The notes under the pieces: generated by a model
The model's database searches: none
The model's input: the letters and a program-made list of their open reading frames with translations, nothing else
What the model was told of the DNA's origin: nothing
Virus record (IMG/VR): IMGVR_UViG_3300022701_000122
Coordinates: 64,001 to 128,000 of that record
Reading direction: 5' to 3' (one strand)
DNA: 64,000 nt
Source of the DNA: a virus
Part shown: positions 4,500 to 37,719 of the stretch, piece by piece
Layout: each line of letters opens with the position of its first letter
Numbering within the stretch: the stretch's first letter is position 1
Made by a program: the position numbers and the translations under genes

Positions 4500-5705
4500 A
4501 TGAAATCCATGACTGCTTATCATCATCAATATATTAATAATAGCATATCAGCTTTATTACAAGGAATTGGTGATTTTTTTAAAACAGAATTATTTCCAAG
4601 ATCAAGTAAATTAATCATATCTTCTTATGAGAAATCAGTAGAACGATATACTCAGTTATTACAAGATCCAGATGAAAAACATAGAATATCGTATCCATTT
4701 ATTACACTTGAACCTGGATATGATTTCAAACCGGATGATCAAGCTGGAAGATTCTTTTATCAATATCCACAATTTAGACATAAACAAGCATTAAATGAGT
4801 ATAAACCACGAATATATGATGATGGTAATATTATTATAGCACCTGCTTTGAATAGATATGTTGGATCATTATCTATGATTGTTTGGTGTAGCTCTATATA
4901 TGAAATGTTTGATTATAGAATATTGGCATATCAATTCTTTGGTGGTACTGGAAGACCAATTGAGCCAAAAAATATAAATGGTCAATTAATTCTTCCAGAT
5001 AGTTTTGATTATTATACTTATGAAAACCCATATACATCGGAATCATATGATTTAAGCTGGACAGGAACGAATGTTCAGCAAGATTTATTAATAAGAAATA
5101 TAAACAAGAATAAAAATGTTTTTCCATATGTATTGCGACCAAGAATTATACTTGAAGATGTTAATGATGGTAGTGAGCGGTATGAAGGTAGTGATGGGTT
5201 GGCAGAATGGAGATTAAATATAGAAATGACATTTGAATGTAATCTACCAACCCATTTAATTTTTTATTCAGAAGCTTTGCCAGAAATTGATAGAATTGTA
5301 TTTTCAATTGAAGTAGATCAAATATACTTGAGAAGAGATATAGACGAAGTAACAACTGTTCCAAAAAACATTATGGCTACTATTGGGGATAATTTGACAG
5401 AAACAGTTCAGAATGTGGATATGGTTTTAAATAAAACACTTACATATAGTATAACTGCTCAAGATATAACTGATATTCAATCCGATACTCAATTAACTAT
5501 CGACTTGGGCGAAGATCTTGGTGATGATCCAGTATATTTTAAAGTATATGGTAGGCATGGTATTTTAGTAATGGATTATTATTGGACTGTTTCTAAAACG
5601 GGTGCAAATACAGATCTTATTATTCATTCTATAAATATTGGAGATGATGCATTTGTTGAAGGAGATACATTATCAATAGTTCATTATAAAGAAGATGGAA
5701 CTTAA
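4500..5705 (+). CDS. Virion protein, possibly tail terminator/completion (T4 gp15/gp3-like)
   Basis: AGGAG RBS; YPFITLEP segment and beta-rich pattern reminiscent of tail-completion folds; function tentative. Confidence 0.4.
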   Translation: MKSMTAYHHQYINNSISALLQGIGDFFKTELFPRSSKLIISSYEKSVERYTQLLQDPDEKHRISYPFITLEPGYDFKPDDQAGRFFYQYPQFRHKQALNEYKPRIYDDGNIIIAPALNRYVGSLSMIVWCSSIYEMFDYRILAYQFFGGTGRPIEPKNINGQLILPDSFDYYTYENPYTSESYDLSWTGTNVQQDLLIRNINKNKNVFPYVLRPRIILEDVNDGSERYEGSDGLAEWRLNIEMTFECNLPTHLIFYSEALPEIDRIVFSIEVDQIYLRRDIDEVTTVPKNIMATIGDNLTETVQNVDMVLNKTLTYSITAQDITDIQSDTQLTIDLGEDLGDDPVYFKVYGRHGILVMDYYWTVSKTGANTDLIIHSINIGDDAFVEGDTLSIVHYKEDGT

Positions 5706-8646: not shown

Positions 8647-8805
8647 ATGGGTAATGAACAATTTGATAGTCATGTTACGTTGCAAAAATTGATAAAAGAT
8701 ATAAGGGAAATACATGAAGAATTGTTAAAAATAAATGATCAAGTTAAAAAATTATATAAAGAAATTGAGATATCAGCCAATAGGAGGACAGTTGATGAAA
8801 TTTAG
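8647..8805 (+). CDS. Small coiled-coil hypothetical protein, 52 aa
   Basis: GAAGGA RBS, ATG 8647 to TAG 8805, overlaps the thyA start. Confidence 0.5.
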   Translation: MGNEQFDSHVTLQKLIKDIREIHEELLKINDQVKKLYKEIEISANRRTVDEI

Positions 8806-11800
8806 ACCAGTTTTTATTAATGCGCGAGATTTGGATGATGCTTGGCATCAATTATTATATCAATTATATAAAGAAGGGAGGAGATATTCAATTACATCTG
8901 GTTCACATGCTGGATCAGAGAGAGTTACTTTTGATTTTGCATCTGGTTTTATTAGGTATCCACAAAGTAGACCATTATCACCAAGAATGCCTGAAGGGGT
9001 ATCTTTACCGCCACCAACTACTGATGATGAAATAGATCAATATTTTGCTAATTATATAATGGATTCTAATCTTGAACCAAATGAAGAATATAGATATGCA
9101 ACATGGATAGTTGGAGATAATACAAATTATATTTATGGGGATGAGAATTTATGCAGCTATAATCAAACTGAATGGGTTATAAATCATTTTAAAACACATG
9201 GTATCGGAAATGAACATTGCTATATTACAATAGGTAATCCTGATTCAAATCGTGCATATGATAGACCATATCTTAAATGTAAAACATGTGGAAAGTTGCA
9301 TACGAAAAAAGCATCCAATAACGTATGTACAAATAATAAATGTAAAGCATATGGTACAGAATCTTTATTCATAAGTGAAGCGGATAGAGGAACTTCTCCA
9401 TGTTTACGTGGATTAGATTTTAGAATTATAGATGGGTATTTGACAACTAATGTAATATATCGATGTTTAGATGGAGATACACCAATAATCATAAAACATA
9501 ATTCAGTTTTAAAAAGAACTATTATAAAAGAAATATATCAATATATAAAATGTGGTGATTCAGTGGAAGTTATATCATTTGATAAAGATTATAATCAGAT
9601 ATGGTCTAATGTTACTGATTCACAAGTTTCATATAGATCAGATATCAGAGAAATTGAGATATATGGTGGTTATAAAATAAATGCATCAGAAAATCACAGA
9701 TTTCCAATATTAAAAAATGATAATATTGAATTAAAATATGTATATGATTTGGTTGATGGTGATGTGTTATTAGAGCCATATAGTATTGATTTTCAGTATA
9801 ATTCAGTAGATGTAATTGATTTATTTGAGATCTTTAAAGATAGTAATAAAGTTAAAGTTTGTAATTTAGAATTATCTGATTTTCATAGATTTAAAGAAGA
9901 TAACATTTCATATACTGATAGTAATAGAGATATAAAAATGATATCTATAAAACAAGCATATAATAGCCATTTATATAATGAATCTAATTTAACTATTCAT
10001 TGTTTTAAAATACAAACAAATAGAATGTTTAAAATTTCAAATGATTTTTCGTATTTTATGGGTTTATGGTGCGCAGATGGCTGGTATGGTAATAATTCAA
10101 GTAGTCTTAGAATAGCTATAAATTCCAAAAAGACTGATACTTTTAATAGGGTAATAAATTTTCTTAAGAATGAATTTGATTATACACCATCTATTGAACA
10201 TCGTGATGGATGTGAAGTTTTAAATATATCAATAGGTTTTCTTGTAAGAATGTATAAAAATTTAGGATTTAAACATGGAGCTAAATCGAAAAAAGTTCCA
10301 AATATTGTATTTTCACTTTCTAATGAACTTATAAATTCTTTTTTAGATGGGTGGATTTCTGGTGATACTTGTTGTTCAGCAAGTAATGATCTTATAATTG
10401 ATATGTCATATTTAAGTAAAATGGTGAATAAAAATGTTTCAATTTATAGAGAACCAGAACGACTTGTATATTTCAGAAAAGATAATAGATACATAAAAAG
10501 TAGTGGGTGTTTTAGTATATATAATATGAGTAAGAATCGTCCAAAATTAAGAAAAGGTGACTATATACTAAGAACTATAAAAAGTGTTAGTAATATACTT
10601 AATTTCGGAAATGTTTATGATATATCTGTTGATTCTGATTCTCATTTATTTTGTTGTGGATATATACCAATTATGACCCATAATTCTTGGGATGTATATT
10701 GTTTGAGTGATGATTCTGAAATATTAACAGATAATGGATGGCGCAATATAGATACTATATCTAAAGATGATAAAGCGGCTACATTAAATATAGATAAATG
10801 GGAAATGGAATTTTGTAATATTGATGAAATAATTAAATCTAATTATAGTGGTGATATGTATGAAATAGAAACTGCAAATATATCTCAATTAATAACTCCA
10901 AACCATAGAATGTTACATAAATATGTTACACATTCTGGAAATAAACGAATTATTAAAGATTATCAATATACTAAGGCAGATGAATTAATACCAAAAGATG
11001 GATCACTTATACCAGTTTCAGCACCATATAAAGAAGGAACATGGGAATTGGGTTATGTAAAGGCATCTCTAATTGGTTGGATTTTAACTGATTCACATTA
11101 TTTAGAAAAATGTGATGGTGTGTATATTTATCAAAGTGCTAAGAAGTACCATGTTGATATAAGAGAATTATTAACTGAATCTGGTATGAACTTTACTGAA
11201 AAATTTGAATCAAAGACAATGTATAAAATTGCAGATAAAGAGTATCCAGATGGTTTACTTGTTGAAATGTATAACTTTTATATTTCTGCTAAATCTACTA
11301 AATGGATAAAAGAAATAATTCCAAATAGAAGACCAACAGAAGAATTATTAAATCTTACTTATGATGATAGAATGTCAATATTTATTGCAATGATAAAAGG
11401 TGATGGTAGTTTTAAACATACAGCATATTGCTTTTATTCACAAGATAAAGAAAAAAGAGATTGGTTTCAACGATTAGCATTATCTTTGGGATTTCAAGCG
11501 AAAATAAATGATGAATCTGGATGTGTTAATGTATCTAATAGGAAAGAAGCATCATTTAATAGAACTTATTTTGTTGATGGTAAATTGCCTATTCGTAAAT
11601 ATGATGGTAGGATATGGTGTATACGAAATAGAAATACAAATTTTTTTATGAGAAGAAATGATAAAATATCTGTTACTGGAAATTCTGGATTTCCATGTAA
11701 CATGGGCGGTTTTACATTGTTGAATGAATATATTGCCGGGGAACTTGATATTAACTCTGGACCACTTTCATTTTCATGTAAATCTCTCCATGCATATTCA

Positions 11801-11839
11801 CATCATGTGGATATAATTGCTCAAAGATTAAATAAGTAA
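8795..11839 (+). CDS. thyA: Thymidylate synthase (ThyA fold, archaeal-like type) with two inteins
   Basis: AGGAGG RBS before ATG 8795; catalytic SPCLR; after intein removal YR-SWDVY-SGFPCN matches RSxD...GxPxN with Asn (dUMP specificity); SLHAY. Confidence 0.88.
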   Translation: MKFRPVFINARDLDDAWHQLLYQLYKEGRRYSITSGSHAGSERVTFDFASGFIRYPQSRPLSPRMPEGVSLPPPTTDDEIDQYFANYIMDSNLEPNEEYRYATWIVGDNTNYIYGDENLCSYNQTEWVINHFKTHGIGNEHCYITIGNPDSNRAYDRPYLKCKTCGKLHTKKASNNVCTNNKCKAYGTESLFISEADRGTSPCLRGLDFRIIDGYLTTNVIYRCLDGDTPIIIKHNSVLKRTIIKEIYQYIKCGDSVEVISFDKDYNQIWSNVTDSQVSYRSDIREIEIYGGYKINASENHRFPILKNDNIELKYVYDLVDGDVLLEPYSIDFQYNSVDVIDLFEIFKDSNKVKVCNLELSDFHRFKEDNISYTDSNRDIKMISIKQAYNSHLYNESNLTIHCFKIQTNRMFKISNDFSYFMGLWCADGWYGNNSSSLRIAINSKKTDTFNRVINFLKNEFDYTPSIEHRDGCEVLNISIGFLVRMYKNLGFKHGAKSKKVPNIVFSLSNELINSFLDGWISGDTCCSASNDLIIDMSYLSKMVNKNVSIYREPERLVYFRKDNRYIKSSGCFSIYNMSKNRPKLRKGDYILRTIKSVSNILNFGNVYDISVDSDSHLFCCGYIPIMTHNSWDVYCLSDDSEILTDNGWRNIDTISKDDKAATLNIDKWEMEFCNIDEIIKSNYSGDMYEIETANISQLITPNHRMLHKYVTHSGNKRIIKDYQYTKADELIPKDGSLIPVSAPYKEGTWELGYVKASLIGWILTDSHYLEKCDGVYIYQSAKKYHVDIRELLTESGMNFTEKFESKTMYKIADKEYPDGLLVEMYNFYISAKSTKWIKEIIPNRRPTEELLNLTYDDRMSIFIAMIKGDGSFKHTAYCFYSQDKEKRDWFQRLALSLGFQAKINDESGCVNVSNRKEASFNRTYFVDGKLPIRKYDGRIWCIRNRNTNFFMRRNDKISVTGNSGFPCNMGGFTLLNEYIAGELDINSGPLSFSCKSLHAYSHHVDIIAQRLNK
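9464..10684 (+). mobile_element. Intein 1 in thyA, LAGLIDADG type, 407 aa
   Basis: Starts CLDGDT, block B SENHRF, FMGLWCADG and FLDGWISGD, ends VYDISV...THN followed by Ser. Confidence 0.92.
10700..11683 (+). mobile_element. Intein 2 in thyA, LAGLIDADG type, 328 aa
   Basis: Starts CLSDDSEIL, block B TPNHRM, LIGWILTDS and FIAMIKGDG, ends IWCI...TGN followed by Ser. Confidence 0.9.
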
Positions 11840-12281: not shown

Positions 12282-15200
12282 ATGCCTGTATTTAGGAAAA
12301 TATATTTAAAAACAAAAGTTTCCGGTGAAGTAGTTGAAACTGATCTTAAAAAACGAGAATCTGCGTTTGATGACGAAACAAAGTCTTGGTATGTAAAAGA
12401 TTATCAAGGCGTCATGCATAAATTTTCCAGTATAGATGATGGTGTTATATCTGCCCATAGAACTTGGTCTTCTGACAAAATATTATCAGAATTAAATGAA
12501 TACAGTCTTCCGAATAGATGGTTGGAAGGAACAACTGTCCCGCCATCTACATTGGGGTCTGAAGGTAATCATTATATAAATACAATAACAAAAGATGTTT
12601 ATAAGAAAAAAACTATTCCAATAGGTGGAGTTGATAGTTTCACCACATTAATGATTCATAGTGATTCGGTTGATGGGAATCAAGAATTTGAAGATTCAAG
12701 TCAAAGTGATCATGATATTACATTTTTTGGAAGTGTTGAACATAGTAATGATCAAAAAGTATTTGGTGATACAAGTATAAAATTTAATGGTGATCAAGCT
12801 ATATCAGGATTAAAAATTGAACATTCTGATGATTTCTCATTTGATGAATATGAGTTCTCAATAGATTTCAGAATAAGATTCGAACAATTAAATAATACTC
12901 AAGTATTATTTTCCAGAAAGAAAGAGAATGTATCTGATTTTTGGAAATTAGAATATGATAATGTAAATCATCATTTAGAATTTACACATGATACAGTTGA
13001 TACTGGAAGTATTGGTATTGTTGGAAGTATAATATTTGAAGTTGATACTTGGTATCATATTGCAATTGTTGGTGAGATTGATGAAATTAGTGGTGATAGA
13101 GTATTTAGATTAATTGTTGATGGTGTTCTTATTTCATCTTCAATATATGACACTTTTGATTATTTTTATGGTCCATTATATATTGGATCTTATGATGAAA
13201 ATACAAGTGATTCATTCGTTGGATGGATGGATGAAATAAGAATATCATCTGGAATTGCAAGAGATTTTATAGATGATGTTCCAACTGAAGTTTATACTGT
13301 ACCAGATGGATCTACTACATTAGATTCATGGTGGTTACTTGGTAATATTAGAGATAATAATCGATTTACGAGTCTTGTCGATTTACCAAATGATTATACC
13401 AATCAATCGGGTAAAATTCTCATAGTAAATGAAACAGAAGATGGATTAAGATTTGAAAGTTTTAACCCGAATGGCGTATACGAATTTGTTGATCTTACGG
13501 ATACTCCTTCCACATACGCTGGTCAAGCAAATAGACTCGTAGCTGTTGCTGGTGATGAATCTGGTCTTGAATTTGTTGATCGATCTTCTTCTGGTATAAA
13601 ATTTATTGAATTATCTGATGTTCCAACCAGTTATGCTCAATCAAGATATAAAGTACCAAGAGTAAACTATAATCAAAATGGTCTTGAATTTGTTGATGAT
13701 ATTCGTAATCTTATAGATTTATCTGATGTTAATGCTTCTAATTATACTGGTGATCGCCATAAAATATTAAGAGTTAATTCAAGTGAGTCTGGTGTTGAAT
13801 TTGCTGAACCTACTGTAATGCAACAGTTGTTAATTATAGACAGCAGGGCAGACCTTCCAGCTACAGCAGATGTTGGTACACTTGTCGTTGCCAGTGGTCC
13901 AACTGGTGATGGTAACATGTATGTATTTATTGGATGGTATACGAGAGATGGTTATCAAACACCAACGTATGAAAATAAATGGTTAGTAAAATCTGGAAAT
14001 AGATATGAAGCAACATCTGTATTTCCAAGTACATCAACATATATTATTCCTATTGGAACAAGATTATTTAGTGAAGACGATGGTACATGGTTTATATATA
14101 CTGGTTCTGAATGGATTGATACGAAAGAAGATTTAGCTCCAGCTACTGCCACAAATCTTGGTGGAATAAAAGTAGGTGATAGATTAACTGTTGAACAAGA
14201 TGGAACATTAAATGCTGATTTACAATCATCATATAATTTTGATTATAATTATAAATATAAATTAGATAATATACAAGCTAATGCAAATAATTATGTTCAT
14301 CCATCTACTCACCCTGCTGTAATCATCGAAGAAGATACAACACATAGATTTGTAACCGATGCTCAAATATTAGCATGGAATGCTGCTTCGGGTGAATTTG
14401 TTCCAGCTACAGAGACAACACTTGGTGTTATTAAAGTAGGAGATCGATTATCAGTTGAAGTTGATGGAACATTAAATGCTGATTTACAATCTGATGAGAA
14501 TTTTACAACTGCTCTGAAAAATAAATTAGAAGGAATGGCTCCTTCTGGTTTATCTCCAGCTACAATTGCTGATCTTGGTGGAATTATTGTTGGTGAAAGA
14601 TTATCAGTTGAAGTTGATGGAACATTAAGTGCAAATGTTCAATCAGATAATAATTTCACAGATGCATTAAAAAATAAATTGGATGGTGTTGATGATAGTG
14701 CCAATTATTATGTACACCCATCAACCCATTCAGCATCCATGATAACAACATCGACATCAAGAAGATTTGTTACAGATGCACAGATAGCGTTATGGACTGC
14801 TGGTGGAAGTGTTGAATGGGATAATATAACGAGTAAACCATCTGTTTTTCCGCCAGATACACATTATCATGATTTTGTTGATTTAACTGATTCTCCAGCA
14901 AATTATACTGGTCAAGCTGGAAAAATATTACAAGTTAATTCTGGAGAAGATGGATTAGAATTTATAGATAATCCAGGTTCAGTTGATGATGGTGATTGGT
15001 CAAGTGCAGATAGTCCTCCCGGTAATTGGTCAGATACACATAATCATGGTGTTACGTTTGATGCAGTTGTATCAACAACTTCTGTGAATTCTACATTTAG
15101 ATATGTAATTCCATCATCTGAGTTATCGACTTCTGGAACATCGATACGACTGAAGTTTCAAAGTATTGAAGGTTATACTTTATATGTATATAAATGCTAT

Positions 15201-18200
15201 GTTGGTCATGCATCTCAAACAGTTGGAGCAGATACATTTGATTTCGATGGAAATCAAGTTCAAATGTCTGTTAATGAAGAGACATCATTTTATATTACAA
15301 ACGGTGAAACTGTAACTACAGATATTGAAACATTTACATTAGATCCAACTCGAAATTTAATAGTTGCAATGTATGTTGCAGATTTTGGGCATTTATCAAA
15401 ATCTTCATTAACTGGAAATTGTTCATATTATTTTAAGAATGGTGATTATTCTTATCAGACAGATGTTGCAAGTGGAGGATGGGTACAATCTTCAAATATA
15501 TATGCATTTATAAGTGAGATAGAAGTTAAAACCAGTGATACTGGATCAGATGGTGATTATTATCTCGATACTGGAACTGGTGATATATATAAAAAAATAA
15601 CTGGTGTTTGGACTAAACAAGGAAATATACGGGGTCCAAGGGGATTAAAGGGAGATGATGGTGATGCTGGTTCGACAACATTTATTGGATTAACTGATGT
15701 TCCAAGTAGTTATTCGACTTATGCGAATAAGCGAGTAACTGTTAATGCAACTGCCGATGGCTTAGTATTTTCAGATAAATATGAACATCCATCAACCCAT
15801 CCAGCTACAATAATCACTCAAGATACAACTCATCGATTTATAACAGATGCAGAAAGAATAGCATGGAATGCTGCGGCATCAGGAAGCATACCACCAGCAA
15901 CAACTTCCACAATTGGAGGTATTATAGTTGGAGATAGATTAACGGTTGCTATAGATGGTACTTTAGATGCAGATGTTCAAACAGATAATAATTTTACAGA
16001 TGCATTAAAATCTAAATTAGATGGTATAGCTTCTGGTGCAAATAATTATACTCACCCTGTCACTCATCCACCATCAATCATTGCAGAAGATTCAAATAAT
16101 AGATTTGTAACGGATGCACAGATTGCACAATGGAATTCTGGATCTGCTACAAATTTTACTGATTTGTCTGATACTCCTGCTAATTATAGTGGTCATAGTC
16201 AAAAATTGGTTAGAGTAAATGCTGGAGAGACAGCATTAGAATTCGTTGATTCTACCGCTGGTGGTGGGAGTGGAGTTGATGAATTTATCGAATTAACCGA
16301 TACGCCTGGATCATTTACAGCAAATAAATATCTTAAAGTTAATGCTGGTGCTACGGCATTAGAGTTTGTAGATGAACCAAGTGGAGTTGATACATTTTTA
16401 GGTCTAACTGATTCTCCGGGTTCATTTTCTGGTCATGGTTTAAAAGTGGTTAGAGTGAATAGTGGTGCAAATGCTTTAGAATTTAATACACCAACATTTC
16501 TTGATTTGAATGATACACCAGGATCATTTATTGCCAACAGATACGTTAAAGTTAATTCTGCTGGTAATGCGTTAGAATTTACAGATTCTACCGCTGGTGG
16601 TTCTGATGTTGATGAGTTTTTAGAACTGATTGATGCACCATCAAGCTATTCTGGTCAATCTTTAAAGTTAATAAGAGTTAATGCTGGAGAAACTGGAGTT
16701 GAATTTACAGATCCATATACTCACCCTGCCACTCATCCACCGTCTATAATTGCTGAAGATACAAATGATAGATTTGTATCAGATTCACAAATATCAACAT
16801 GGGATGGTAAACCAGATAATTTTCTTGAACTTCCTGATACTCCAAGTTCATTTTCTGGTCAATCTGGTAAGAATATACGAGTAAAGTCAACAGAAGATGG
16901 TTTAGAATTCTATGATTCAACTGCTGGTAGTGGATCTGGAGCAGATACATTCATAGAATTAACAGATACACCTGTTTCATTCTCTGGAAATGAAGGATAT
17001 GTTGTTAGGGTGAATGAATCTGGTACAGCATTGGAATTCTTTGATTCAACCACTGATTTTACTGGATATGATGAATTCATAGAATTAGCAGATACACCGA
17101 GTTCTTTTATTGGACAAGGTAGTAAAATATTATATGTTGCTGATAATGAATTATCTGTCGATTTTAAAGATCCAACATTTATTGATTTAACAGATACTCC
17201 TGCTTCTTATCCTGAAGCTGCTGGAACATGGGCGAGAAGAATAGATATTACTATAAATAGTTTACTTGTTGATGAAGATTTAACAGATTTTCCAATCATG
17301 TTGGATCTTACAAATCATACAGAAATATTCAGTATAATATCTGATTCAGATAAATTGAAGATGTCTGCAAGAGTATATGATTCAACTTCTGATTCTGAGA
17401 CAGAATGTTATGTTGAAATTGATCATTATGATAGCACATCTAATACTGGAATATTATGGGTAAAAGTTCCAAATGTATCATCAACAGAAGATACTGTTTT
17501 GAGATTATATTATGATGATACACAATTGGATAATACTACATATGTTGGTGTTACCGAATCAGTTGCTGCTCAAAATGTATGGGATAGTAATTATATAGGT
17601 GTATGGCATTTAAATGCTGAAGATCCATCAGTAACGGATAGTGTTAAAGATTCAACTCAAAATAACAATGATGGCAATACACCAACTTCAAATAAACCAA
17701 CTCTTGTTGATACAGATCGACTTGGAAAAGGTTATGAATTTTATAGTCATTATGGTTCAGATGCACCAAGAATAGCATGTGATTGTGTTGGTATAACTAA
17801 TACAAAGTATACTGTTGAAATAACAGCTAAACCCGTTGTTACTGCTGTGAATGATGGTCTTTGGTGTATAAGTGATGGTAATAGTGAGTCTGCAAGAAAT
17901 GATCTTAGAATTTATGATGGGGATATGGATAATAGGGTAACTACAGTTACAATTATGGGATACCCTATGCCAGATGCTGGTCAATGGCATACATTTGGTA
18001 CAACATGGGATTTTGATGGTAATTCATTTGTATCTTATTTAGATGGCGCTATTGTTGATACATCTTCAAGTACACGATCAGCGGCAGGAGGACTTGATAC
18101 TTTTTCAATTGGTGCATGGAATTATTATGGTTCATGGAACACTGAAGCAACTGTTATTTCAGATGTGAGATTATCAAATGGTGTACGATCATATGCTTGG

Positions 18201-21200
18201 ATGAAAGCATCTGCTTATAATAGTAATGATGGATTAGTATCATTTGCTGAGAATGTTACTCTATTTAATCCTCAAGTTGTTCTTGCAAATAATAGTGGTG
18301 TTACATTTGAAGAAATAGATAATTTCCTAAATTTATATCAACTTATAGATACTCCAAATAGTTATACTGGTCAATCTGGAAAAGTATTATCGGTTAAATC
18401 GACAGAAGATGGAATTGAATTTACAACTCCAACTGTAACTGATGAATTCTTAGATTTGACGGATACACCGAGTACATACAGTGGATCAGAAGGTTATAAT
18501 GTAAGAGTTAATCAATCTGGAACTGCTCTTGAATTTTACGATTCTACGTCCGATGGTGGATCTGGTGTTGATGAATTCATAGAATTGATAGATACTCCGT
18601 CTACATTTTCCGGTCAATCTGGAAAATCAATAAGAGTCAATCAAACTGAAAATGGATTAGAATTCTATGATTCAACAACCGATTTTACTGGATATGATGA
18701 ATTTGTTGAATTAATAGATACTCCATCAAGTTATTCAGGACAAGCTGGTAAGAATATACGTGTTAATCAAACAGAAACTGCTTTAGAGTTTTATGATTCA
18801 ACTGCTGATTTCAGCAGTTATGATGAATTTGTTGAATTAACAGATACGCCATCATCATTTTCTGGTCATGGTTTAAAGGTAGTACGTGTAAATATTGATG
18901 AAGATGCTCTTGAATTTTATGATTCTACAGCAAGTGATGTTGATGAATTCATAGAACTTATTGATACACCATCTTCATATAGTGGTAATGAATTAAAATC
19001 TATAAGAGTTAATCAATTTGGAACAGCATTAGAATTCTACGATTCAACTGCGAGTGGAGGATCTGGTGTTGATGAATTTATTGAATTAATTGATACTCCG
19101 TCAAGTTATTCTGGATATGAACGATATAATGTACGAGTTAATAATGACGGTACTGGATTAGAATTTTATGATTCAACAACAGATTTTACTGGATACGATG
19201 AATTCTTAGAGTTAACAGATACACCAAGTACATATTTTGGTCAGAGTGGTAAATATCTTATTGTTAATCCAGGTGAAACTGCTATTACATTTACAGATTC
19301 TGCTGGTGGTGATGGGGGAGCAAGTGATTTCTTAGATCTAACAGATACTCCTTCTGAATACCCATTATCTGGTAATTGGTCAAATCGTTATACGATGACC
19401 ATTGATTCATCTAATATAGATGCAGATCTTATCGATTTTCCAATTCGTATAGATCTAAGTAATATGACAGATGTTTTTTCTGAATTATCCGATGCAGATA
19501 AATTAAAAATGTCAGTAAGACATTATGATAGTACGAGTAGTGAGACTGAGTGCTATACTGAAATAGAATCTTACAACTCTTCTGCTCAAACTGGCGTATT
19601 ATGGTCAAAGATTCCATCTATATCTTCATCTCAAGATACAACCATATATTTATACTTTGATAAGACACGATCAGACAATAGTACATATATCGGTGTACTT
19701 GGGTCAACACCAGCACAAACAGTATGGTCAAATGATTTCGGTGCAGTTTACCATATGAATCAAGATCCATCACAGGCCGGTGGTGATGAAATAAAAGATT
19801 CTACTGTGAATGCTAATCATGGTTCTTGTATTGGTGGTGATGTTTTGACTTCTGTTTCTACTACATATTGTGATACAGGTGTTCAATTTGTTGGTGGGGG
19901 TAATACTTCATCAATAGGTGCAATCCAGATTTCTAGTCCATTGAATGTTAATAAAAATGTTGGTACTCATCAAGCAACAATGAAGACTGGATCTTCATGG
20001 GATACGATAATTTGTAACTATTATTCATCTACAAGTAGTGAATATGATAGATTTTATCAAGGTGTTAATTCATCTGGTGACCAGTTTTTTGTTACAGATA
20101 GACTTAATAATGTAGATGGTAATTCATTATTAACATCTAACCATTGGTATAATGTAGCTTGTACATTTGATTTTGATAATGATAATTATGAATTTTTTTA
20201 TAGTGGTGTATCTAATGGAGCGTTTACTCCTAATTATAATGCACCATCTACATTATTAGGTTATATGATAGGATCTATGTTGGTTGGTGTTGGTGGTTGG
20301 TTTAGAGTTGGTGATGCTACTTTTGCAGAACTTAAAATCTCTAATGTTGTGAGATCAGATGCATGGATAAAAGCAACTTATTTAAGTGATTATGATCAGT
20401 TAATAACTTATGGTACATCTGAATCAATAAATACAAATATTATAATTGTATCTGGTGATGGTCTTGTATTTGAAACAAAAGATGATTTTATGGATTTTGT
20501 TGATTTACGAGATACTCCAAATGATTATACAGGTCAGGCAGGAAAGAATATACGAGTAAATTCTGGTGAAACTGGATTAGAGTTTTATGATGCTACTTCT
20601 GGTGGTGAAAGTGGAGTTGATGAATTCATAGAGTTGATAGATACTCCGAGTTCATTTATAGGTCAAACAGGAAAACATTTGGTTGTAAATGGATCAGAAA
20701 CTGCTCTTGAATTTGCAACTGTAACAGATACGGGTGTCACTACATTTTTAGAATTAACTGATACTCCCTCTGGATACCCATCATCTGGATATGGTCGGCG
20801 TGTTACTATAACTCTTTCATATACATATATCGATGACGATCTTACCGATTTTCCAGTAATGATCAATTTATCAACTTATACAGATATATTTTCTGAATTA
20901 TCTGACGATGATAAATTAAAAATGTCAGTTTGCCAATATGATTCTACAAATGGAGAAGTTGAATGTTACACAGAAATACAATCTTACAATAGTAGTGCAC
21001 AAACAGGAATATTATGGGTAAAAGTTCCTCACGTTTCATCGACAGAAAATACAATTATTAGAATATATTATGATTCAACAGCCAGTAATAATACATCATA
21101 CGTTGGTACTACAACTTCTTCGGCTGCTCAAAATGTTTGGGATGATGATTATATTATCGTTTATCACTTTGAAGAAAATCCAATATCAGGTAGCGATATT

Positions 21201-24200
21201 ATAAAGGATTCAACTCAATATTTGAATCATGGTAGTCCCAATGTATCTTTAACACATACAGAAATGAGTGGTACGCCTGATCTTGATTATGCTGTTCAAA
21301 ATGCATCATCTGGTGATCGTAAAATTGAAATGGGTACTAGTAATTTTGATAAAGGGTTGTTCACACTTGAGACTATAACAAGAATTGATGATGCTTCTTC
21401 TAAATATCCCGGTTTATTATTGTTACATACAGACGATGATAATAAATTACATTTTTATGAACAAGGCCCAAATAATAAATTAAGATTCACAACTGCTGTT
21501 GGTGGTTCGGGTGAAACTATATTTGAATACGACAGAGTTGATGATGATGCATGGCATTTTTATGGATTAAAGGCGGATTTTGATAATGATGAATATTCTT
21601 TATGGGAAGATAATACTGAGGTAGCAACATCGTCATCAACACATACTGAACTTACGGCTTTAGGTACTCCTTATATTGGTCCATCTTATTTTTCTAGTAA
21701 TTGGTATTCTGGTAATTATATTATTGGTGAATATAGAGTTTCAAAGATTGCAAGAAGTGATGCTTGGATAAAAGCTTCGTATTATAGTACATATGATAGT
21801 TTATTAACATTTGGTGGAGAAGAAATTGTTTCAACAAGTATTGCAACAGTATCTGGTAATTCTATAATATTTACAGATAAAGTTAATTTTATAGATTTTA
21901 TAGAACTTGGAGATACACCATCTGTATATACTGGTCAATCAGGAAAGAATATAAGAGTAAAATCGTCAGAAGATGGATTAGAATTCTATGATTCAACAAC
22001 AGATTTTGCTGGATACGATGAATTTATTGAATTAACAGATACACCATCGAGTTATTCAGGACAAGCTGGTAAAGTAGCAACTGTTAATGAATCAGAAACA
22101 GCATTGGAATTTTTAACATCATCTTCTGGAGGAATTCAATGGTATGATGATGTTGGTGATATTCCTTATGATTTAACATCATATTATTTAAATGAGACAA
22201 CTGGTGATATTACAAAATATGAAAGTACTGCTGGATGGTTGGGTACTTGGGCTAAACGTATCGAAATAACTGTTGATAATACCAATATTGATAGTGATTT
22301 AACACATTTTCCGATACCAATCGTATTGGGATCATCTGTTGGTGGATCTTCTCAAGATATAACAGATATATTCGATGAAGTTGGTTCAAGTTGGCAAAAG
22401 ATTGCGGTAACTAAATCTGATGGAACTACTCAATTATATGTTGAAAAAGAAGTATGGGATTCTGGTACTGAAAATGCATTATTATGGGTATCCAAATCTG
22501 ACTTAACACTTAGTTCATCGACCACGACTACATTATATTTATATTTTGATTCATCACAAGGAAATAATACCACCTATGTTGCTGATCCTGGAAACAGAAC
22601 AGAAGTATGGGATTCAAATTTTGTTGCTCGTTATGGTATGACTGAAGATCCATCAATTGGAAATATTTTAGATTCTACAATTAATAGTTATGATTGTGTC
22701 CCAAATGGTTCTATGACAAGCGGAGATCTTGTAGATGGACCATTAGGTAAATCCATTAATTTTGATGGTTCTAATGATTATGCAAAATCTTCTGCTCAAA
22801 ATTTATCTTCTTTAGAGAGTTCATTTACAGTTGAGGCATATATAAAATGGGTATCTTTAAATGCGGCGTGGGATAGAATATGTCAAATAGGTGGAGATTC
22901 TAATGGTGCTATTTTAATGGCAAGAAGCAATACTACATCATATCTTACTAATAGTGTGTGGGGTGATGATGTAGCTACTACGTTAGGGACTGACGTAGGA
23001 AATTACCATTATGTTTTTCAAACATTTAATGGCACAACAGCATATATGCATAGGGATCTTACCGAAGATCCAGCAACTAATGGTGTTACTGTATCTTCAA
23101 AATCAAGTGCCAGTATAATTATCGCGGGAGGAAATTCTGGAACATATAATGGAAATGTTGAAATAGATGAATTCAGAGTTTCTAACATTGAGAGATCTGA
23201 TGTATGGTTAAAAGCAAATTACTATGCTCTTACTGATGATTTATTATCATATGGTTCAGTTGAAAATAATATAGTATCTGTAGGAACAGTTAAACCATCT
23301 TGGTTGGATTTAATAGATACACCATCTGTATATACAGATCAAGCCGGTAAAAGTGTAAGAGTTAATCAGTCTGAAAATGGTTTAGAATTCTATGATTCTA
23401 CTTCTGGTGGTGAAAGTGGAGTTGATGAATTCATAGAGTTGATAGATACTCCGAGTTCATTTATAGGTCAAGCAGGAAAATACGCTGTAGTTAATCAAGC
23501 AGAGACAGCATTAGAGTTTGTAGATTCAACTGCTGGTGGTGATGGATCTAGTGTTGATGAATTCATTGAATTAATTGATACCCCGAGTTCATTTATAGGT
23601 CAAGGTGAAAAAGTAGTTTCTGTAAATGTTGGTGAAACAGCATTAGAATTTACAACAATTAATTCTGGTGTATCTGCATTTACAGAATTAACCGATACAC
23701 CATCAAGTTTACCAGATTCATTTTCGTGGGCAAAGAGAGTTGAATTAACTATAAGTCCAACTTATATAGATTCTGATTTAACAAATTTTCCAGTTACAAT
23801 TAATTTATCAGATTATACTGATATATTTAGTGAATTAAGTGATACTGATAAATTAAAAATATCTGTAACATATACTGATTCAACATCAAGTGAGACTGAA
23901 TGTTATGTTGAAGTTTCTGAATTTGATGAAACTAATCAGCGAGGTTTCCTATATGTAAAAGTTCCAACCGTATCATCTTCTGAAAATACGACTTTATATT
24001 TATATTATGATTCAAATCAATCAAATAATACTACATATGTTGGTATAACTGGATCTGATGCTGCTAAAAATGTATGGGATGATGATTATGTAATAGTTTA
24101 TCATATGGAGGAGGAACCAAATGCTGGATCAGATATTATAAAAGATTCTACTCAATATTCAAACCACGGTAGTCCTTCTCATAATCAGATACAAGTTGAT

Positions 24201-26309
24201 ACTGCTGATGGTACGCCTGATGTCGGAAATTCTGTTAAAATAGATAGATCTGTTTCAAGTGCAAGTAGAATTACGATGGGTAATTCTAATTTTAATAAAG
24301 ATACATTTACTCTCGAAGCAACATGTAGATTGGATAATTATCCAAGTAGATATCCCAGTCTTTTGACAATGACCAATAATAATAATAATAACAGGATGCA
24401 ACTTGGTCTCAATGATTCTAATCATATTAGACTGAATAATGTATTAAGTGGTTCAAATAATGCTATACTCGATGCTGCAAGAACCGATGATGATACATGG
24501 CATCATTATGCGTATAAAGTAGATTTTAATAATGATGAATACGAATTGTTTGAAGATAGTGTATCTGTTGATAGTAATACTTCATCATATTCACCGCAAT
24601 CATCAGTAACTACTCTTACTATGGGTGCTATTTATTATAGTGGTTATCAAAATGGTCATGCCACAGTTGGTGAATATCGTGTATCAAAAATAGTAAGATC
24701 AGATGCTTGGTTAAAAGCTACTTATCATACAATATACAATAATATAATAACATTTGGATCAGAAGAATTATCAGAAATACAATTGGTTACTGCATCATCA
24801 TCAGGTCTGACATTTACAAGTTCGTCTTCATATATATCATCAGAAAAAATAGTAACAACTCCAGATGATGAATTAACAGACAATGCTGGAAAAATAGCAA
24901 TTGTTAATCCTGGAGAAACAGCATTCAGTCTTACTAATGATTATGTAAAAGCAACAGATTTAGATATGAATGGATTTGAAAACAGAACTGATAGCACGTT
25001 AACATGGACTGATTCAACTCCAGACAGAACTCTTTCAATTCAACCAACTGGAACAAGTTTTAACTATTGGGTTAATGGTGTTAAATATACATCAACTGGT
25101 GATACTAAACAGATAACTAATACAGAAGGAATATGGATATTTTATTATGATTCAAATGGATTACAGGCAATAAATAGCCCAACCTCTGCACAAGTAGATA
25201 CTGCAATTAGAAATTATGCAATTGCATGTGTTGTATATTGGAATGCAACTGATGAAGAAGCGATATTTGTTGGTGAAGAAAGACATGGTATACATATGTC
25301 TCCAGATACTCATGCGTATTTACATTTTACAGAAGGAGCGAGATATTTATATGGATTAGGTCTTGTTGATATAGATGCTGATCAAGATGGTTCTCTTGAT
25401 TCACATGCTCAATTTGGAGTAGATGCTGGTGCTATATCTGATGAAGATATTTATCATAATATAAGTGCTATTGATTCAACTGCCGGTATTCCGATATATT
25501 ACATGCTTGGATCTGAAGCACGATGGGTTAGGTATAATAAGACAGGATTTGCTGTGAGAACATATGATGGTACAAATTCTACAAGATTAGCTTATAATCA
25601 ATATACGGGGGGATCATGGCAATTGACTGAAGTTGGACATACTGATTATGTACTTTATCATATATTTGCAACTACAGGAAAAGATAATCCAATTATATCA
25701 ATAATGGGTCAAAATAATTACAATAATATACATGATGCCCGAGATGGTGCTTTAAGTGAAATTAGAAATATTGAATTGGTTGAATTATTATTTCCAGAAA
25801 TAAAAGTGTTAGCAACAGTTATATTTTATACAGCCGATTCTTTAGGAAATTCTGTAAATGCAGATATAGTAACTAATGAAGATGGTGATGATTATGTGGA
25901 TTGGAGGAATGAAAGGGTAGGTAGGGTTGAAGTAACCACAAGTGATCACGGTTCATTAAGTGGTTTAATAGACGATGATCATACACAATACACATTATTG
26001 GATGGTAGAGATGGTGATATATTAAAAATAGATGAGGTTAGAGCATATGATGGTGCTGGATTAAAATTAAACGATGATTCTGGAACAAGTGGTATATTTA
26101 TAGAAGATGGTGGTGAAGTTGGATTTGGTACAAATTCCCCAACTGCTGCTATTGATGTCGATTCAGATAAGATTAGAGTAAGAACATCTAAAACTCCAGC
26201 AACATCTGGTGCTGCTGGTAATGCTGGTGATATATGTTGGGATACTAATTATGTATATATATGTGTTGCAACAAACACATGGAAACGTGCCGCAATATCT
26301 ACGTGGTAA
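12282..26309 (+). CDS. Giant tail fibre / receptor-binding protein, 4675 aa (LamG, 5x DUF2341+LamG, fibre-shaft repeats)
   Basis: Dozens of F-x-E/D-L-x-DTP-x-x-Y-x-G-Q-x-G...VN...LEF repeats; ATxxxLGGIxVG and YxHPxTHP repeats; short collagen GPRGLKGDDGDAG; typical fibre C-terminus GDICWDTNYVYICVATNTWKR. Confidence 0.85.
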   Translation: MPVFRKIYLKTKVSGEVVETDLKKRESAFDDETKSWYVKDYQGVMHKFSSIDDGVISAHRTWSSDKILSELNEYSLPNRWLEGTTVPPSTLGSEGNHYINTITKDVYKKKTIPIGGVDSFTTLMIHSDSVDGNQEFEDSSQSDHDITFFGSVEHSNDQKVFGDTSIKFNGDQAISGLKIEHSDDFSFDEYEFSIDFRIRFEQLNNTQVLFSRKKENVSDFWKLEYDNVNHHLEFTHDTVDTGSIGIVGSIIFEVDTWYHIAIVGEIDEISGDRVFRLIVDGVLISSSIYDTFDYFYGPLYIGSYDENTSDSFVGWMDEIRISSGIARDFIDDVPTEVYTVPDGSTTLDSWWLLGNIRDNNRFTSLVDLPNDYTNQSGKILIVNETEDGLRFESFNPNGVYEFVDLTDTPSTYAGQANRLVAVAGDESGLEFVDRSSSGIKFIELSDVPTSYAQSRYKVPRVNYNQNGLEFVDDIRNLIDLSDVNASNYTGDRHKILRVNSSESGVEFAEPTVMQQLLIIDSRADLPATADVGTLVVASGPTGDGNMYVFIGWYTRDGYQTPTYENKWLVKSGNRYEATSVFPSTSTYIIPIGTRLFSEDDGTWFIYTGSEWIDTKEDLAPATATNLGGIKVGDRLTVEQDGTLNADLQSSYNFDYNYKYKLDNIQANANNYVHPSTHPAVIIEEDTTHRFVTDAQILAWNAASGEFVPATETTLGVIKVGDRLSVEVDGTLNADLQSDENFTTALKNKLEGMAPSGLSPATIADLGGIIVGERLSVEVDGTLSANVQSDNNFTDALKNKLDGVDDSANYYVHPSTHSASMITTSTSRRFVTDAQIALWTAGGSVEWDNITSKPSVFPPDTHYHDFVDLTDSPANYTGQAGKILQVNSGEDGLEFIDNPGSVDDGDWSSADSPPGNWSDTHNHGVTFDAVVSTTSVNSTFRYVIPSSELSTSGTSIRLKFQSIEGYTLYVYKCYVGHASQTVGADTFDFDGNQVQMSVNEETSFYITNGETVTTDIETFTLDPTRNLIVAMYVADFGHLSKSSLTGNCSYYFKNGDYSYQTDVASGGWVQSSNIYAFISEIEVKTSDTGSDGDYYLDTGTGDIYKKITGVWTKQGNIRGPRGLKGDDGDAGSTTFIGLTDVPSSYSTYANKRVTVNATADGLVFSDKYEHPSTHPATIITQDTTHRFITDAERIAWNAAASGSIPPATTSTIGGIIVGDRLTVAIDGTLDADVQTDNNFTDALKSKLDGIASGANNYTHPVTHPPSIIAEDSNNRFVTDAQIAQWNSGSATNFTDLSDTPANYSGHSQKLVRVNAGETALEFVDSTAGGGSGVDEFIELTDTPGSFTANKYLKVNAGATALEFVDEPSGVDTFLGLTDSPGSFSGHGLKVVRVNSGANALEFNTPTFLDLNDTPGSFIANRYVKVNSAGNALEFTDSTAGGSDVDEFLELIDAPSSYSGQSLKLIRVNAGETGVEFTDPYTHPATHPPSIIAEDTNDRFVSDSQISTWDGKPDNFLELPDTPSSFSGQSGKNIRVKSTEDGLEFYDSTAGSGSGADTFIELTDTPVSFSGNEGYVVRVNESGTALEFFDSTTDFTGYDEFIELADTPSSFIGQGSKILYVADNELSVDFKDPTFIDLTDTPASYPEAAGTWARRIDITINSLLVDEDLTDFPIMLDLTNHTEIFSIISDSDKLKMSARVYDSTSDSETECYVEIDHYDSTSNTGILWVKVPNVSSTEDTVLRLYYDDTQLDNTTYVGVTESVAAQNVWDSNYIGVWHLNAEDPSVTDSVKDSTQNNNDGNTPTSNKPTLVDTDRLGKGYEFYSHYGSDAPRIACDCVGITNTKYTVEITAKPVVTAVNDGLWCISDGNSESARNDLRIYDGDMDNRVTTVTIMGYPMPDAGQWHTFGTTWDFDGNSFVSYLDGAIVDTSSSTRSAAGGLDTFSIGAWNYYGSWNTEATVISDVRLSNGVRSYAWMKASAYNSNDGLVSFAENVTLFNPQVVLANNSGVTFEEIDNFLNLYQLIDTPNSYTGQSGKVLSVKSTEDGIEFTTPTVTDEFLDLTDTPSTYSGSEGYNVRVNQSGTALEFYDSTSDGGSGVDEFIELIDTPSTFSGQSGKSIRVNQTENGLEFYDSTTDFTGYDEFVELIDTPSSYSGQAGKNIRVNQTETALEFYDSTADFSSYDEFVELTDTPSSFSGHGLKVVRVNIDEDALEFYDSTASDVDEFIELIDTPSSYSGNELKSIRVNQFGTALEFYDSTASGGSGVDEFIELIDTPSSYSGYERYNVRVNNDGTGLEFYDSTTDFTGYDEFLELTDTPSTYFGQSGKYLIVNPGETAITFTDSAGGDGGASDFLDLTDTPSEYPLSGNWSNRYTMTIDSSNIDADLIDFPIRIDLSNMTDVFSELSDADKLKMSVRHYDSTSSETECYTEIESYNSSAQTGVLWSKIPSISSSQDTTIYLYFDKTRSDNSTYIGVLGSTPAQTVWSNDFGAVYHMNQDPSQAGGDEIKDSTVNANHGSCIGGDVLTSVSTTYCDTGVQFVGGGNTSSIGAIQISSPLNVNKNVGTHQATMKTGSSWDTIICNYYSSTSSEYDRFYQGVNSSGDQFFVTDRLNNVDGNSLLTSNHWYNVACTFDFDNDNYEFFYSGVSNGAFTPNYNAPSTLLGYMIGSMLVGVGGWFRVGDATFAELKISNVVRSDAWIKATYLSDYDQLITYGTSESINTNIIIVSGDGLVFETKDDFMDFVDLRDTPNDYTGQAGKNIRVNSGETGLEFYDATSGGESGVDEFIELIDTPSSFIGQTGKHLVVNGSETALEFATVTDTGVTTFLELTDTPSGYPSSGYGRRVTITLSYTYIDDDLTDFPVMINLSTYTDIFSELSDDDKLKMSVCQYDSTNGEVECYTEIQSYNSSAQTGILWVKVPHVSSTENTIIRIYYDSTASNNTSYVGTTTSSAAQNVWDDDYIIVYHFEENPISGSDIIKDSTQYLNHGSPNVSLTHTEMSGTPDLDYAVQNASSGDRKIEMGTSNFDKGLFTLETITRIDDASSKYPGLLLLHTDDDNKLHFYEQGPNNKLRFTTAVGGSGETIFEYDRVDDDAWHFYGLKADFDNDEYSLWEDNTEVATSSSTHTELTALGTPYIGPSYFSSNWYSGNYIIGEYRVSKIARSDAWIKASYYSTYDSLLTFGGEEIVSTSIATVSGNSIIFTDKVNFIDFIELGDTPSVYTGQSGKNIRVKSSEDGLEFYDSTTDFAGYDEFIELTDTPSSYSGQAGKVATVNESETALEFLTSSSGGIQWYDDVGDIPYDLTSYYLNETTGDITKYESTAGWLGTWAKRIEITVDNTNIDSDLTHFPIPIVLGSSVGGSSQDITDIFDEVGSSWQKIAVTKSDGTTQLYVEKEVWDSGTENALLWVSKSDLTLSSSTTTTLYLYFDSSQGNNTTYVADPGNRTEVWDSNFVARYGMTEDPSIGNILDSTINSYDCVPNGSMTSGDLVDGPLGKSINFDGSNDYAKSSAQNLSSLESSFTVEAYIKWVSLNAAWDRICQIGGDSNGAILMARSNTTSYLTNSVWGDDVATTLGTDVGNYHYVFQTFNGTTAYMHRDLTEDPATNGVTVSSKSSASIIIAGGNSGTYNGNVEIDEFRVSNIERSDVWLKANYYALTDDLLSYGSVENNIVSVGTVKPSWLDLIDTPSVYTDQAGKSVRVNQSENGLEFYDSTSGGESGVDEFIELIDTPSSFIGQAGKYAVVNQAETALEFVDSTAGGDGSSVDEFIELIDTPSSFIGQGEKVVSVNVGETALEFTTINSGVSAFTELTDTPSSLPDSFSWAKRVELTISPTYIDSDLTNFPVTINLSDYTDIFSELSDTDKLKISVTYTDSTSSETECYVEVSEFDETNQRGFLYVKVPTVSSSENTTLYLYYDSNQSNNTTYVGITGSDAAKNVWDDDYVIVYHMEEEPNAGSDIIKDSTQYSNHGSPSHNQIQVDTADGTPDVGNSVKIDRSVSSASRITMGNSNFNKDTFTLEATCRLDNYPSRYPSLLTMTNNNNNNRMQLGLNDSNHIRLNNVLSGSNNAILDAARTDDDTWHHYAYKVDFNNDEYELFEDSVSVDSNTSSYSPQSSVTTLTMGAIYYSGYQNGHATVGEYRVSKIVRSDAWLKATYHTIYNNIITFGSEELSEIQLVTASSSGLTFTSSSSYISSEKIVTTPDDELTDNAGKIAIVNPGETAFSLTNDYVKATDLDMNGFENRTDSTLTWTDSTPDRTLSIQPTGTSFNYWVNGVKYTSTGDTKQITNTEGIWIFYYDSNGLQAINSPTSAQVDTAIRNYAIACVVYWNATDEEAIFVGEERHGIHMSPDTHAYLHFTEGARYLYGLGLVDIDADQDGSLDSHAQFGVDAGAISDEDIYHNISAIDSTAGIPIYYMLGSEARWVRYNKTGFAVRTYDGTNSTRLAYNQYTGGSWQLTEVGHTDYVLYHIFATTGKDNPIISIMGQNNYNNIHDARDGALSEIRNIELVELLFPEIKVLATVIFYTADSLGNSVNADIVTNEDGDDYVDWRNERVGRVEVTTSDHGSLSGLIDDDHTQYTLLDGRDGDILKIDEVRAYDGAGLKLNDDSGTSGIFIEDGGEVGFGTNSPTAAIDVDSDKIRVRTSKTPATSGAAGNAGDICWDTNYVYICVATNTWKRAAISTW
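20593..23471 (+). repeat. 74-bp perfect direct repeat inside the fibre gene (20593-20666 and 23398-23471)
   Basis: Identical CTACTTCTGGTGGTGAAAGTGGAGTTGATGAATTCATAGAGTTGATAGATACTCCGAGTTCATTTATAGGTCAA at both positions. Confidence 0.9.
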
Positions 26310-36438: not shown

Positions 36439-36441
36439 GTT

Positions 36442-36882: not shown

Positions 36883-36888
36883 TATAAC

Positions 36889-36903
36889 GGACAAATGGTA
36901 AAT
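36889..36903 (+). promoter_or_regulatory. GGACAAA motif, putative phage promoter
   Basis: GGACAAATGGTAAAT intergenic. Confidence 0.65.
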
Positions 36904-36922
36904 GTTCGAAAGGGGTAATAAA

Positions 36923-37093: not shown

Positions 37094-37099
37094 TATAAT

Positions 37100-37701: not shown

Positions 37702-37719
37702 CTTATTAGGAGAATTATT

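Follow-up and report, generated by a model that had tools for sequence, protein, structure and literature searches.

How two complete homing inteins can come to lie five residues apart in a single gene, and whether the interrupted protein can still be made, are the questions raised by a thyA-like gene in a 64,000-nucleotide stretch of viral DNA. This stretch, which we call the window, comprises bases 64001-128000 of the 182,757-base-pair (bp) IMG/VR virus record IMGVR_UViG_3300022701_000122, whose completeness is estimated at 58%. The window is AT-rich (G+C about 27%) and a single strand carries all of its genes. Because these include a class II ribonucleotide reductase, a clamp loader and an RNA polymerase beta'-like gene, we take the source to be a large phage. 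In the translation of the ThyA-like gene a five-codon spacer, SWDVY, separates the two inteins, whose insertion points we call site a (intein 1) and site b (intein 2). The layout, in window coordinates and amino acids (aa), is as follows.

8795-11839 (+): ThyA-like precursor gene, 1014 codons plus stop
8795-9463 (+): N-extein, 223 aa, ending TNVIYR
9464-10684 (+): intein 1, 407 aa, CLDGDTP...IPIMTHN; Cys1, ends His-Asn, +1 Ser
10685-10699 (+): middle extein SWDVY, TCTTGGGATGTATAT, holding a TGGGAT core
10700-11683 (+): intein 2, 328 aa, CLSDDSE...ISVTGN; Cys1, ends TGN, +1 Ser
11684-11836 (+): C-extein, 51 aa, starting SGFPCN; its Asn is the equivalent of ThyA N177

The original prediction, made from the letters alone, had placed two inteins of these lengths at 9464-11683 with five residues between them, and its coordinates and lengths prove exact. 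Both inserts are precise in-frame insertions, because intein-free homologues of 240-330 aa run through the site uninterrupted (YRSWDL(Y/W/F)(S/A/G)G(F/W)PxN). The inserts match the Pfam/NCBIfam models Intein_splicing, intein_Nterm and LAGLIDADG_3, and the flanks match thymidylate synthase weakly. The 735 intein codons form a stop-free run with a probability of about 2e-31 at the local base composition, and a DNA pattern for the a+b junction has one match in the window and none in 100 shuffles. Third-position G+C is alike in the two inteins and the host gene (0.11, 0.11 and 0.13), all of which share an extreme third-position AT bias. At least 80% of empty alleles retain the TGGGAT core of the spacer.

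The motif interrupted is the RS.D...N loop that binds deoxyuridine monophosphate (dUMP), and not the catalytic-Cys motif 21 residues upstream. In E. coli ThyA numbering, site a lies between R166 and S167 and site b between F171 and L172. The earlier statement that the inteins occupy the ThyA active-site motif stands as regards the superfamily, but the motif concerned is the dUMP-binding loop.

About 180 intein-free relatives of the N-extein were found, the best of them 60-66% identical. Most have a precomputed PF00303 hit, and many lie on phage-sized contigs. A profile made from 29 of the intein-free relatives matches solved thymidylate synthases across the C-terminal 80 residues with E about 1e-11 (1.7e-11 with the S. 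aureus and E. coli ThyA). In this alignment tsPC...yRSwD..G.p.N...lHaY falls on ThyA catalytic Cys146, Arg166, Ser167, Asp169, Asn177 and His207/Tyr209. SLHAYSHH in the window's C-extein corresponds to the H207/Y209 region, and the N-extein gives a weak match to TIGR03283 only. Our conclusion from this set of alignments is that the gene is to be read as a divergent member of the ThyA superfamily, which could be a thymidylate synthase or a related enzyme that modifies dUMP. We file it no further than the superfamily because the window's fragments score under the Pfam cut-off. Its substrate is probably dUMP, since position 177 is Asn, not Asp, which points to a substrate of the uracil type. Neither the gene nor its N-extein had a match among the INPHARED phages by blastn or tblastn. 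A scan of IMG/VR with a single-protein pattern gave none, and an alignment-based scan gave 77 loci.

Intein 1 carries the following motifs.

9683-9706 (+): block B, SENH (Thr in relatives)
10055-10087 (+): LAGLIDADG motif GLWCADGW, Asp kept
10340-10372 (+): LAGLIDADG motif LDGWISGD, Asp kept
10613-10660 (+): block F, VYDISVDSDSH

Aligned with 11 site-a relatives, intein 1 has the features of class 1 throughout: C1, SENH, VYDISVDSDSH and THN^S (^ marks a junction or insertion point here and below). Its AlphaFold2 (AF2) model has a mean pLDDT of 92.2 and a pTM of 0.90, and the best Foldseek matches, the TliVMA intein (7qsu) and PI-TkoII (2cw7), cover both its HINT and its LAGLIDADG domain. In two site-a relatives, P0123 and P0124, the LAGLIDADG motifs are visibly degenerate. 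We place the window's intein in the intact group because, unlike these two, its own motifs keep Asp. By its motifs, then, intein 1 is classed as canonical class 1 with a LAGLIDADG endonuclease, and its lineage is confined to site a of the ThyA-like family.

Intein 2 carries a different set.

10892-10918 (+): block B, TPNH-R-M
11069-11101 (+): LAGLIDADG motif LIGWILTDS
11381-11413 (+): LAGLIDADG motif IKGDGS
11606-11659 (+): block F, IWC, with Cys at F:4

Its AF2 model (mean pLDDT 96.8, pTM 0.92) best matches the TliVMA and PhoVMA inteins, PI-SceI and PI-PfuI in Foldseek, again over both domains, and the models of both inteins also match free LAGLIDADG enzymes. As predicted, each intein has LAGLIDADG motifs, two apiece with the acidic residues kept. 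We therefore infer from motifs and models that both consist of a splicing domain and a LAGLIDADG endonuclease with predicted activity.

The splicing domain of intein 2 requires closer attention. The class 1 core is present (C1, TPNH, N328 and +1 Ser), and the common assisting residues are not: G:6 is Gly, F:4 is Cys and there is no F:13 His, a state found clade-wide. That intein 2 ends in Gly-Asn, as the original prediction had it, is plain from the translation (ISVTGN). The replacement of His-Asn is real, but no defect follows from it, as the trait belongs to the whole clade and has an experimental precedent (PMC7891396). Among the best 150 representatives there are more than 100 relatives of intein 2 at 25-53% identity. 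A GN end is common to all seven b-site inteins and about 100 relatives; in nearly all of them it is TGN, followed by Ser, Thr or Cys. Cys1, DQL.TPNHR, VWC (block F), RRNG and TGN are conserved in the clade, with Cys1 kept in over 90% of 111 members. In Perler numbering (PMC2807308) the clade's active site reads Arg B:11, Met/Val B:12, Cys F:4, Thr G:5, Gly G:6 and Asn G:7, with Met at B:12 in intein 2 and Val, Met or Ile there across the clade.

Protein splicing without a penultimate His has been documented (PMC4031507, PMC7891396). The best sequence relative of intein 2 with a solved structure is the AceL NrdHF intein 6zgq (E 0.0019 with intein 2 alone, 2.8e-9 with the clade profile), which has an identical PNHRM block B. 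That intein has an MCT triplet and no C-terminal histidines; changing its Gly145 to His kills all activity, and its Arg69 (B:11) acts at the C-terminal scissile bond in compensation; the intein splices within minutes (PMC7891396). Given the conservation across the clade and the proven AceL NrdHF precedent, we conclude by analogy that the Gly-Asn end is the working state of what appears to be a co-adapted, non-canonical active site, and we reject decay, which clade-wide conservation contradicts. We likewise reject assignment to class 3, as defined in PMC7891396 and PMC7664689: intein 2 shares Cys F:4 and Thr G:5 with that class, but it has Cys1 where class 3 has no position-1 nucleophile, and no Trp at B:12. 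This large, mostly methylase-borne clade, which may have switched host gene, thus combines Cys1 with a class-3-like Cys F:4 and Thr-Gly-Asn.

A survey of thyA alleles, which had been proposed as a check, was made with longer homologues and with a phmmer search using the whole precursor on 1.84 billion protein representatives, together with the IMG/VR loci. Singly occupied alleles were found for both sites. Site a alone is occupied in P0123, P0124, P0128, P0129, P0130, P0134, P0139, P0142, P0152 and, by a mini-intein, P0125; site b alone is occupied in P0122, P0127, P0132, P0133 and P0135 and at the IMG/VR loci L024 and L041/L042. There is also a third site, c, directly ahead of the catalytic Cys (SP^CLRG), which is occupied in P0126 and L073 and is empty in the window:

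9392-9412 (+): catalytic-Cys motif TSPCLRG in the N-extein, intein site c

Sites a, b and c together make an intein hot spot of three sites within 27 residues of a ThyA-fold enzyme. Double alleles of the c+a type, with the two sites 21 residues apart, are found in P0131 and P0148, and P0130 is near-identical to P0131 minus the c intein, which therefore points to recent gain or loss. No second a+b allele was found in the protein representatives, in IMG/VR or in the contigs of Joint Genome Institute (JGI) metagenomes. The DNA pattern of the a+b junction (HN-SWDxx-C..E.L) gave 0 matches in IMG/VR and 0 in the JGI contigs, although the window's own record may be masked there. A candidate intron at site c in locus L066 was rejected, being a frameshift or overlap at TSP with no insertion. 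At locus L080 (about 5440-5470) an in-frame TAA lies two codons ahead of site a (KLHFMP-stop-FRSWDL), and might mark a pseudogene, a recoded stop or an error of sequencing.

What do these alleles say about the origin of the pair? The explanation that we favour, and regard as likely, is that two unrelated, complete homing inteins separately invaded the best-conserved DNA of a ThyA-superfamily gene, its dUMP-binding loop YR^SWD(L/V)Y^(S)G(F)PxN, 15 bp apart. The inteins nearest to intein 1 at site a (42-43% identity) sit in exteins that are 32-34% identical, and among exteins with an a-intein the closest (58-62%) have a-inteins that are 25-34% identical. At site b, P0132 has an intein 48% identical against an extein at 34%. 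The relatedness of intein and extein is therefore discordant at both sites, which is the signature of horizontal homing. On this evidence inteins 1 and 2 would have come by separate homing events, the later arrival, whichever it was, entering an allele already occupied by the other. Such a history would need at least one nuclease to accept a target with the other intein 15 bp away, and with a spacer of only this length the targets of the two nucleases have to meet or overlap. LAGLIDADG enzymes recognise some 20 bp or more, which they cut near the centre to leave a 4-base overhang (PMC3943268). A second invasion would be feasible because an inner half-site of about 10-11 bp fits within the 15-bp spacer, and for the same reason the claim that each intein disrupts the homing site of the other need not hold (PMC3943268). 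Stepwise origin also fits what has been observed for MCM in Haloferax, where alleles holding both inteins were good invaders of alleles with one intein and poor invaders of empty alleles (PMC10643990).

For intein 2, the likely source of the invader can be narrowed down. Nine of the ten host proteins scanned among its relatives are N6/N4 DNA methylases (PF01555). Their dominant insertion site, [IL]xW[LVI]YG^SGFPKS, shares Trp at -4 and S/C-G-F-P at +1 to +4 with site b of the ThyA-like family, RSWD[LVM][YWF]^[SC]G[FYW]PxN. At the DNA level the methylase site (66 empty and 4 occupied alleles) reads ATGTGGnTnTAYGGn^TCn/AGY GGnTTYCCnAAR, the ThyA b site TGGGATnTnTAT^TCTGGATTTCCA, and the window's restored site b TCTTGGGATGTATAT^TCTGGATTTCCA. 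The restored site equals the methylase site at TGG (-12 to -10), at T (-1) and at 11 of the 12 downstream bases (the twelfth is a wobble position), and all bases common to the intein 2 target and the methylase-type target fall within -12 to +12. An IQ-TREE tree of 111 inteins places six of the seven ThyA-b inteins in a single clade (Shimodaira-Hasegawa-like approximate likelihood ratio test, SH-aLRT, 99) nested among the methylase inteins, with a sister group that includes P0137 and P0151 (relevant nodes 84-90). Amino-acid identity between b-site inteins is about 50%, a distance at which synonymous sites are saturated. The lineage of intein 2 probably switched host from a methylase to the ThyA-like gene by way of a look-alike target, TGG at -12 and TCN GGN TTY CCN downstream being the resemblance on which we rely; the direction of the switch is moderately supported. 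As a possible donor, neither a PF01555 methylase nor another copy of intein 2 was found in the 182-kb record. Among 57 distinct empty alleles the +1 residue of site b is Gly in 27, Ala in 19, Ser in 8, Thr in 2 and Asn in 1. In all seven occupied alleles it is Ser or Cys, so that, to judge by these residues, the site-b intein evidently either carries its nucleophile codon with it or depends on having one there.

It is only fair to set out what weighs against this account of two separate invasions of a ThyA-like gene. The survey found neither an a-only nor a b-only allele within the lineage of this phage itself, the nearest extein being 60-66% identical. Endonucleases of the PI-SceI type need about 31 bp, and a neighbour at this distance would break such a footprint. 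The direction of the methylase switch comes from nesting in a quick, midpoint-rooted tree with support of 84-90. The assignment of the gene as a thymidylate synthase comes from the profile match over the C-terminal 80 residues and the conserved catalytic residues, and the window's C-extein scores 19.8 bits against a Pfam/NCBIfam thymidylate synthase cut-off of 24.3.

One alternative is that the pair arose and moves as one 2.2-kb unit into empty alleles, perhaps by means of one nuclease. A distance of 15 bp is too short to anchor double-strand-break repair between the inserts, and if an empty allele were cut at either site and resected beyond those 15 bp, both inteins would be copied. In the tight pairs of two other proteins, P0265 and P0227, the endonuclease of one partner is reduced or missing, as hitch-hiking predicts, and introns whose own endonucleases are inactive are cited as being mobilised by neighbours (cited in PMC10643990). 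Set against these points, the lack of any second a+b allele in the collections surveyed gives no sign that such a unit has spread, the catalytic motifs are kept in both of the window's endonuclease domains, the nearest relatives of each intein occur singly and in different extein lineages, and neighbouring MCM inteins co-homed very inefficiently into empty alleles in vivo (PMC10643990). We thus consider a single mobile unit unlikely. A more elaborate proposal, to which we give slightly more credit while still holding it doubtful, is that the pair could be a composite homing element with two nucleases whose targets overlap in the TGGGAT spacer, each cut copying both inteins and one nuclease reaching alleles that have drifted away from the other, and that the clade of intein 2 could form a mechanistic link between class 1 and class 3 splicing, in which either nucleophile can be used.

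Returning to the pair as the product of two separate invasions, we ask whether its precursor could be spliced. The predicted masses are 117.6 kDa for the precursor, 47.3 kDa for intein 1, 38.4 kDa for intein 2 and 31.9 kDa for a spliced product of 279 residues. Each intein would excise itself post-translationally to leave an enzyme reading IYR-SWDVY-SGFPCN. It had been claimed that each intein disrupts the native extein context of the other. This is not what we find, since the five common residues are native for both junctions: intein 1 has Arg at -1 and SWDVY at +1 to +5, and intein 2 has SWDVY at -5 to -1 and Ser at +1. Either order therefore passes through a precursor resembling one with a single intein. 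If intein 1 left first, the intermediate would be like the P0122-type alleles; if intein 2 left first, it would be like the P0128-type alleles. We conclude that neither order is obligatory, and that intein 1 is the more likely to leave first, as the ribosome finishes it about 330 codons before intein 2.

It could nevertheless be that at least one of the inteins is unable to splice in tandem, leaving an inactive gene and a frozen accident. In favour of this, no second example turned up in the databases searched, very few residues tether the two inteins and intein 2 has the non-canonical Gly-Asn C-terminus, and with the record about 58% complete a second route to thymidine monophosphate (dTMP) is possible. 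We nonetheless regard a dead end as distinctly improbable: the splice nucleophiles and assisting residues are all present, the Gly-Asn clade includes a member for which fast splicing has been demonstrated by experiment (PMC7891396), the long intein reading frame has stayed free of stops, and the flanking five residues suit both junctions. Finally, that strains with a-only and b-only alleles were joined through their shared spacer during assembly is highly improbable even for a metagenome assembly, because the identical 1014-aa double-intein protein (P0121) lies on two JGI contigs, of 182,757 and 201,166 bp, and moreover 15 shared bases are shorter than any usual assembly word and composition is uniform across the junctions.

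Two further features of the gene lie upstream of the inteins.

8782-8787 (+): Shine-Dalgarno sequence AGGAGG, 7 nucleotides ahead of the likely start ATG 8795
9278-9343 (+): CxxC...CxxC zinc-ribbon insert in the N-extein

The open reading frame (ORF) at 8735-11839 (+) is open across 1034 codons. From the sequence around it, the start is most likely ATG 8795 and not 8735, because of the AGGAGG at 8782-8787 and because homologues begin with MKF.PVF at the equivalent Met. The call from 8735 adds 20 codons without conservation. A small coiled-coil-like ORF of 52 codons (8647-8805, +) overlaps ATG 8795. The zinc-ribbon insert occurs in one sub-branch of the family only (P0001, P0002, P0005 and others), the rest being without it, and other branches have different Cys-rich inserts at other loops. 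Directly 3' of the ThyA-like gene is a giant ORF of 4675 aa (12282-26309, +) with many L(T/I)DTPSS(Y/F)xGQxGKxxxVNxxExxLEF repeats and LamG-like blocks, presumably a fibre or adhesin.

The ThyA-like gene is not the only one in this phage with inteins. The class II (B12-type) ribonucleotide reductase (32191-36438, +, 1415 aa) contains two intein-splicing matches, at about 32827-33222 and 33787-34734, and the RNA polymerase beta'-like ORF (58832-61615, +, 927 aa) has a weak Intein_splicing match at aa 158-292. Beyond the window, at about 34,840-37,794 (-) of G000:C1 (loci L003-L005 and L009), a frame of 1581 aa has two intein-splicing regions. The 182-kb phage record holds at least seven inteins.

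How, then, does the pair compare with what is known? The original prediction called so tight a spacing unusual. We found no second a+b allele and no published co-occupancy this close, and in that sense the description is apt, but the spacing is not unique. An undescribed metagenomic protein, P0265, has intein pairs with spacers of 4 and 7 residues, and P0227, a group 1 glycosyltransferase, has a pair with a 6-residue spacer, also undescribed. Because of these 4-7-residue pairs we conclude that tight tandem inteins are rare but recurrent. Every other pair with a spacer of up to 7 residues consists of two GN-clade inteins, of which one or both are mini-inteins or have half of an endonuclease domain. 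P0265 (2602 aa) is almost all intein, with at least six, and has a DUF559/Vsr-like nuclease domain at its end; P0227 (1310 aa) has three inteins in total. The window pair stands out in having two full-length inteins of different lineages, in its host family and in its natural control alleles (empty, a-only, b-only and c+a). Searching the literature, from which many subscription papers were outside our reach, we found nothing on co-occupied intein sites a few residues apart and no intein in a gene of the ThyA fold (PF00303). The thymidylate-synthase inteins that we did find there are all of the ThyX type (PMC4760082; bioRxiv 10.1101/2025.01.02.630785), COG1351/IPR003669, a flavin-dependent synthase unrelated to ThyA. 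Homing endonucleases do occur in other thymidylate synthase genes, namely I-TevI in T4 td and I-BmoI in Bacillus thyA (PMC5009752), but these are GIY-YIG enzymes of group I introns in classical ThyA.

The predicted folds of the window's two inteins match those of solved endonuclease inteins, namely TliVMA and PhoVMA (7qsu/7qst; PMC8966425), PI-TkoII (2cw7), PI-PfuI (1dq3) and PI-SceI (1vde/1lws), with Foldseek E-values of 1e-12 to 2.5e-20. The solved inteins differ in host and insertion site and are 10-17% identical to the window's; they also carry a penultimate His and a block F Asp, both of which are absent from intein 2. In this respect the closest counterpart of intein 2 is AceL NrdHF, likewise of phage-like metagenomic origin, with the same Arg B:11, Met B:12, Cys F:4, absent F:13 His and Thr-Gly-Asn (PMC7891396). 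AceL NrdHF, however, has Ala1, is naturally split and has no endonuclease, whereas intein 2 has Cys1, is contiguous and includes a LAGLIDADG domain.

As regards arrangement, genes with several inteins are known. Multiple occupancy within the ThyA-like family is also seen in P0131 and P0148, but there it is c+a with a 21-residue spacer. In DnaB, sites a and c are two residues apart (PMC4760082) and likewise cluster within a few codons of a conserved motif; simultaneous occupancy has been reported for the distant b and a, not for a and c, whereas the window fills both of its close sites. The nearest parallel is haloarchaeal MCM (PMC10643990), in which the interaction of close intein neighbours has been tested once, with mutual hindrance on empty alleles. 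There too, two full LAGLIDADG inteins lie in a conserved catalytic region, single occupancy is common and the trees conflict. The host differs, being an archaeal helicase, the sites are much further apart, and homing and nuclease activity were shown in vivo, whereas the window's pair is known from its sequence. With two full endonuclease inteins of different lineages 15 bp apart, the window's allele is the limiting case of such neighbours. It makes nuclease footprints, sequential homing versus co-homing, splicing order and the behaviour of two HINT domains on a five-residue tether testable, and tandem inteins with short spacers may also interest engineers of multi-fragment protein ligation. 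MCM and the window's pair raise one and the same question, that of independent homing against co-homing.

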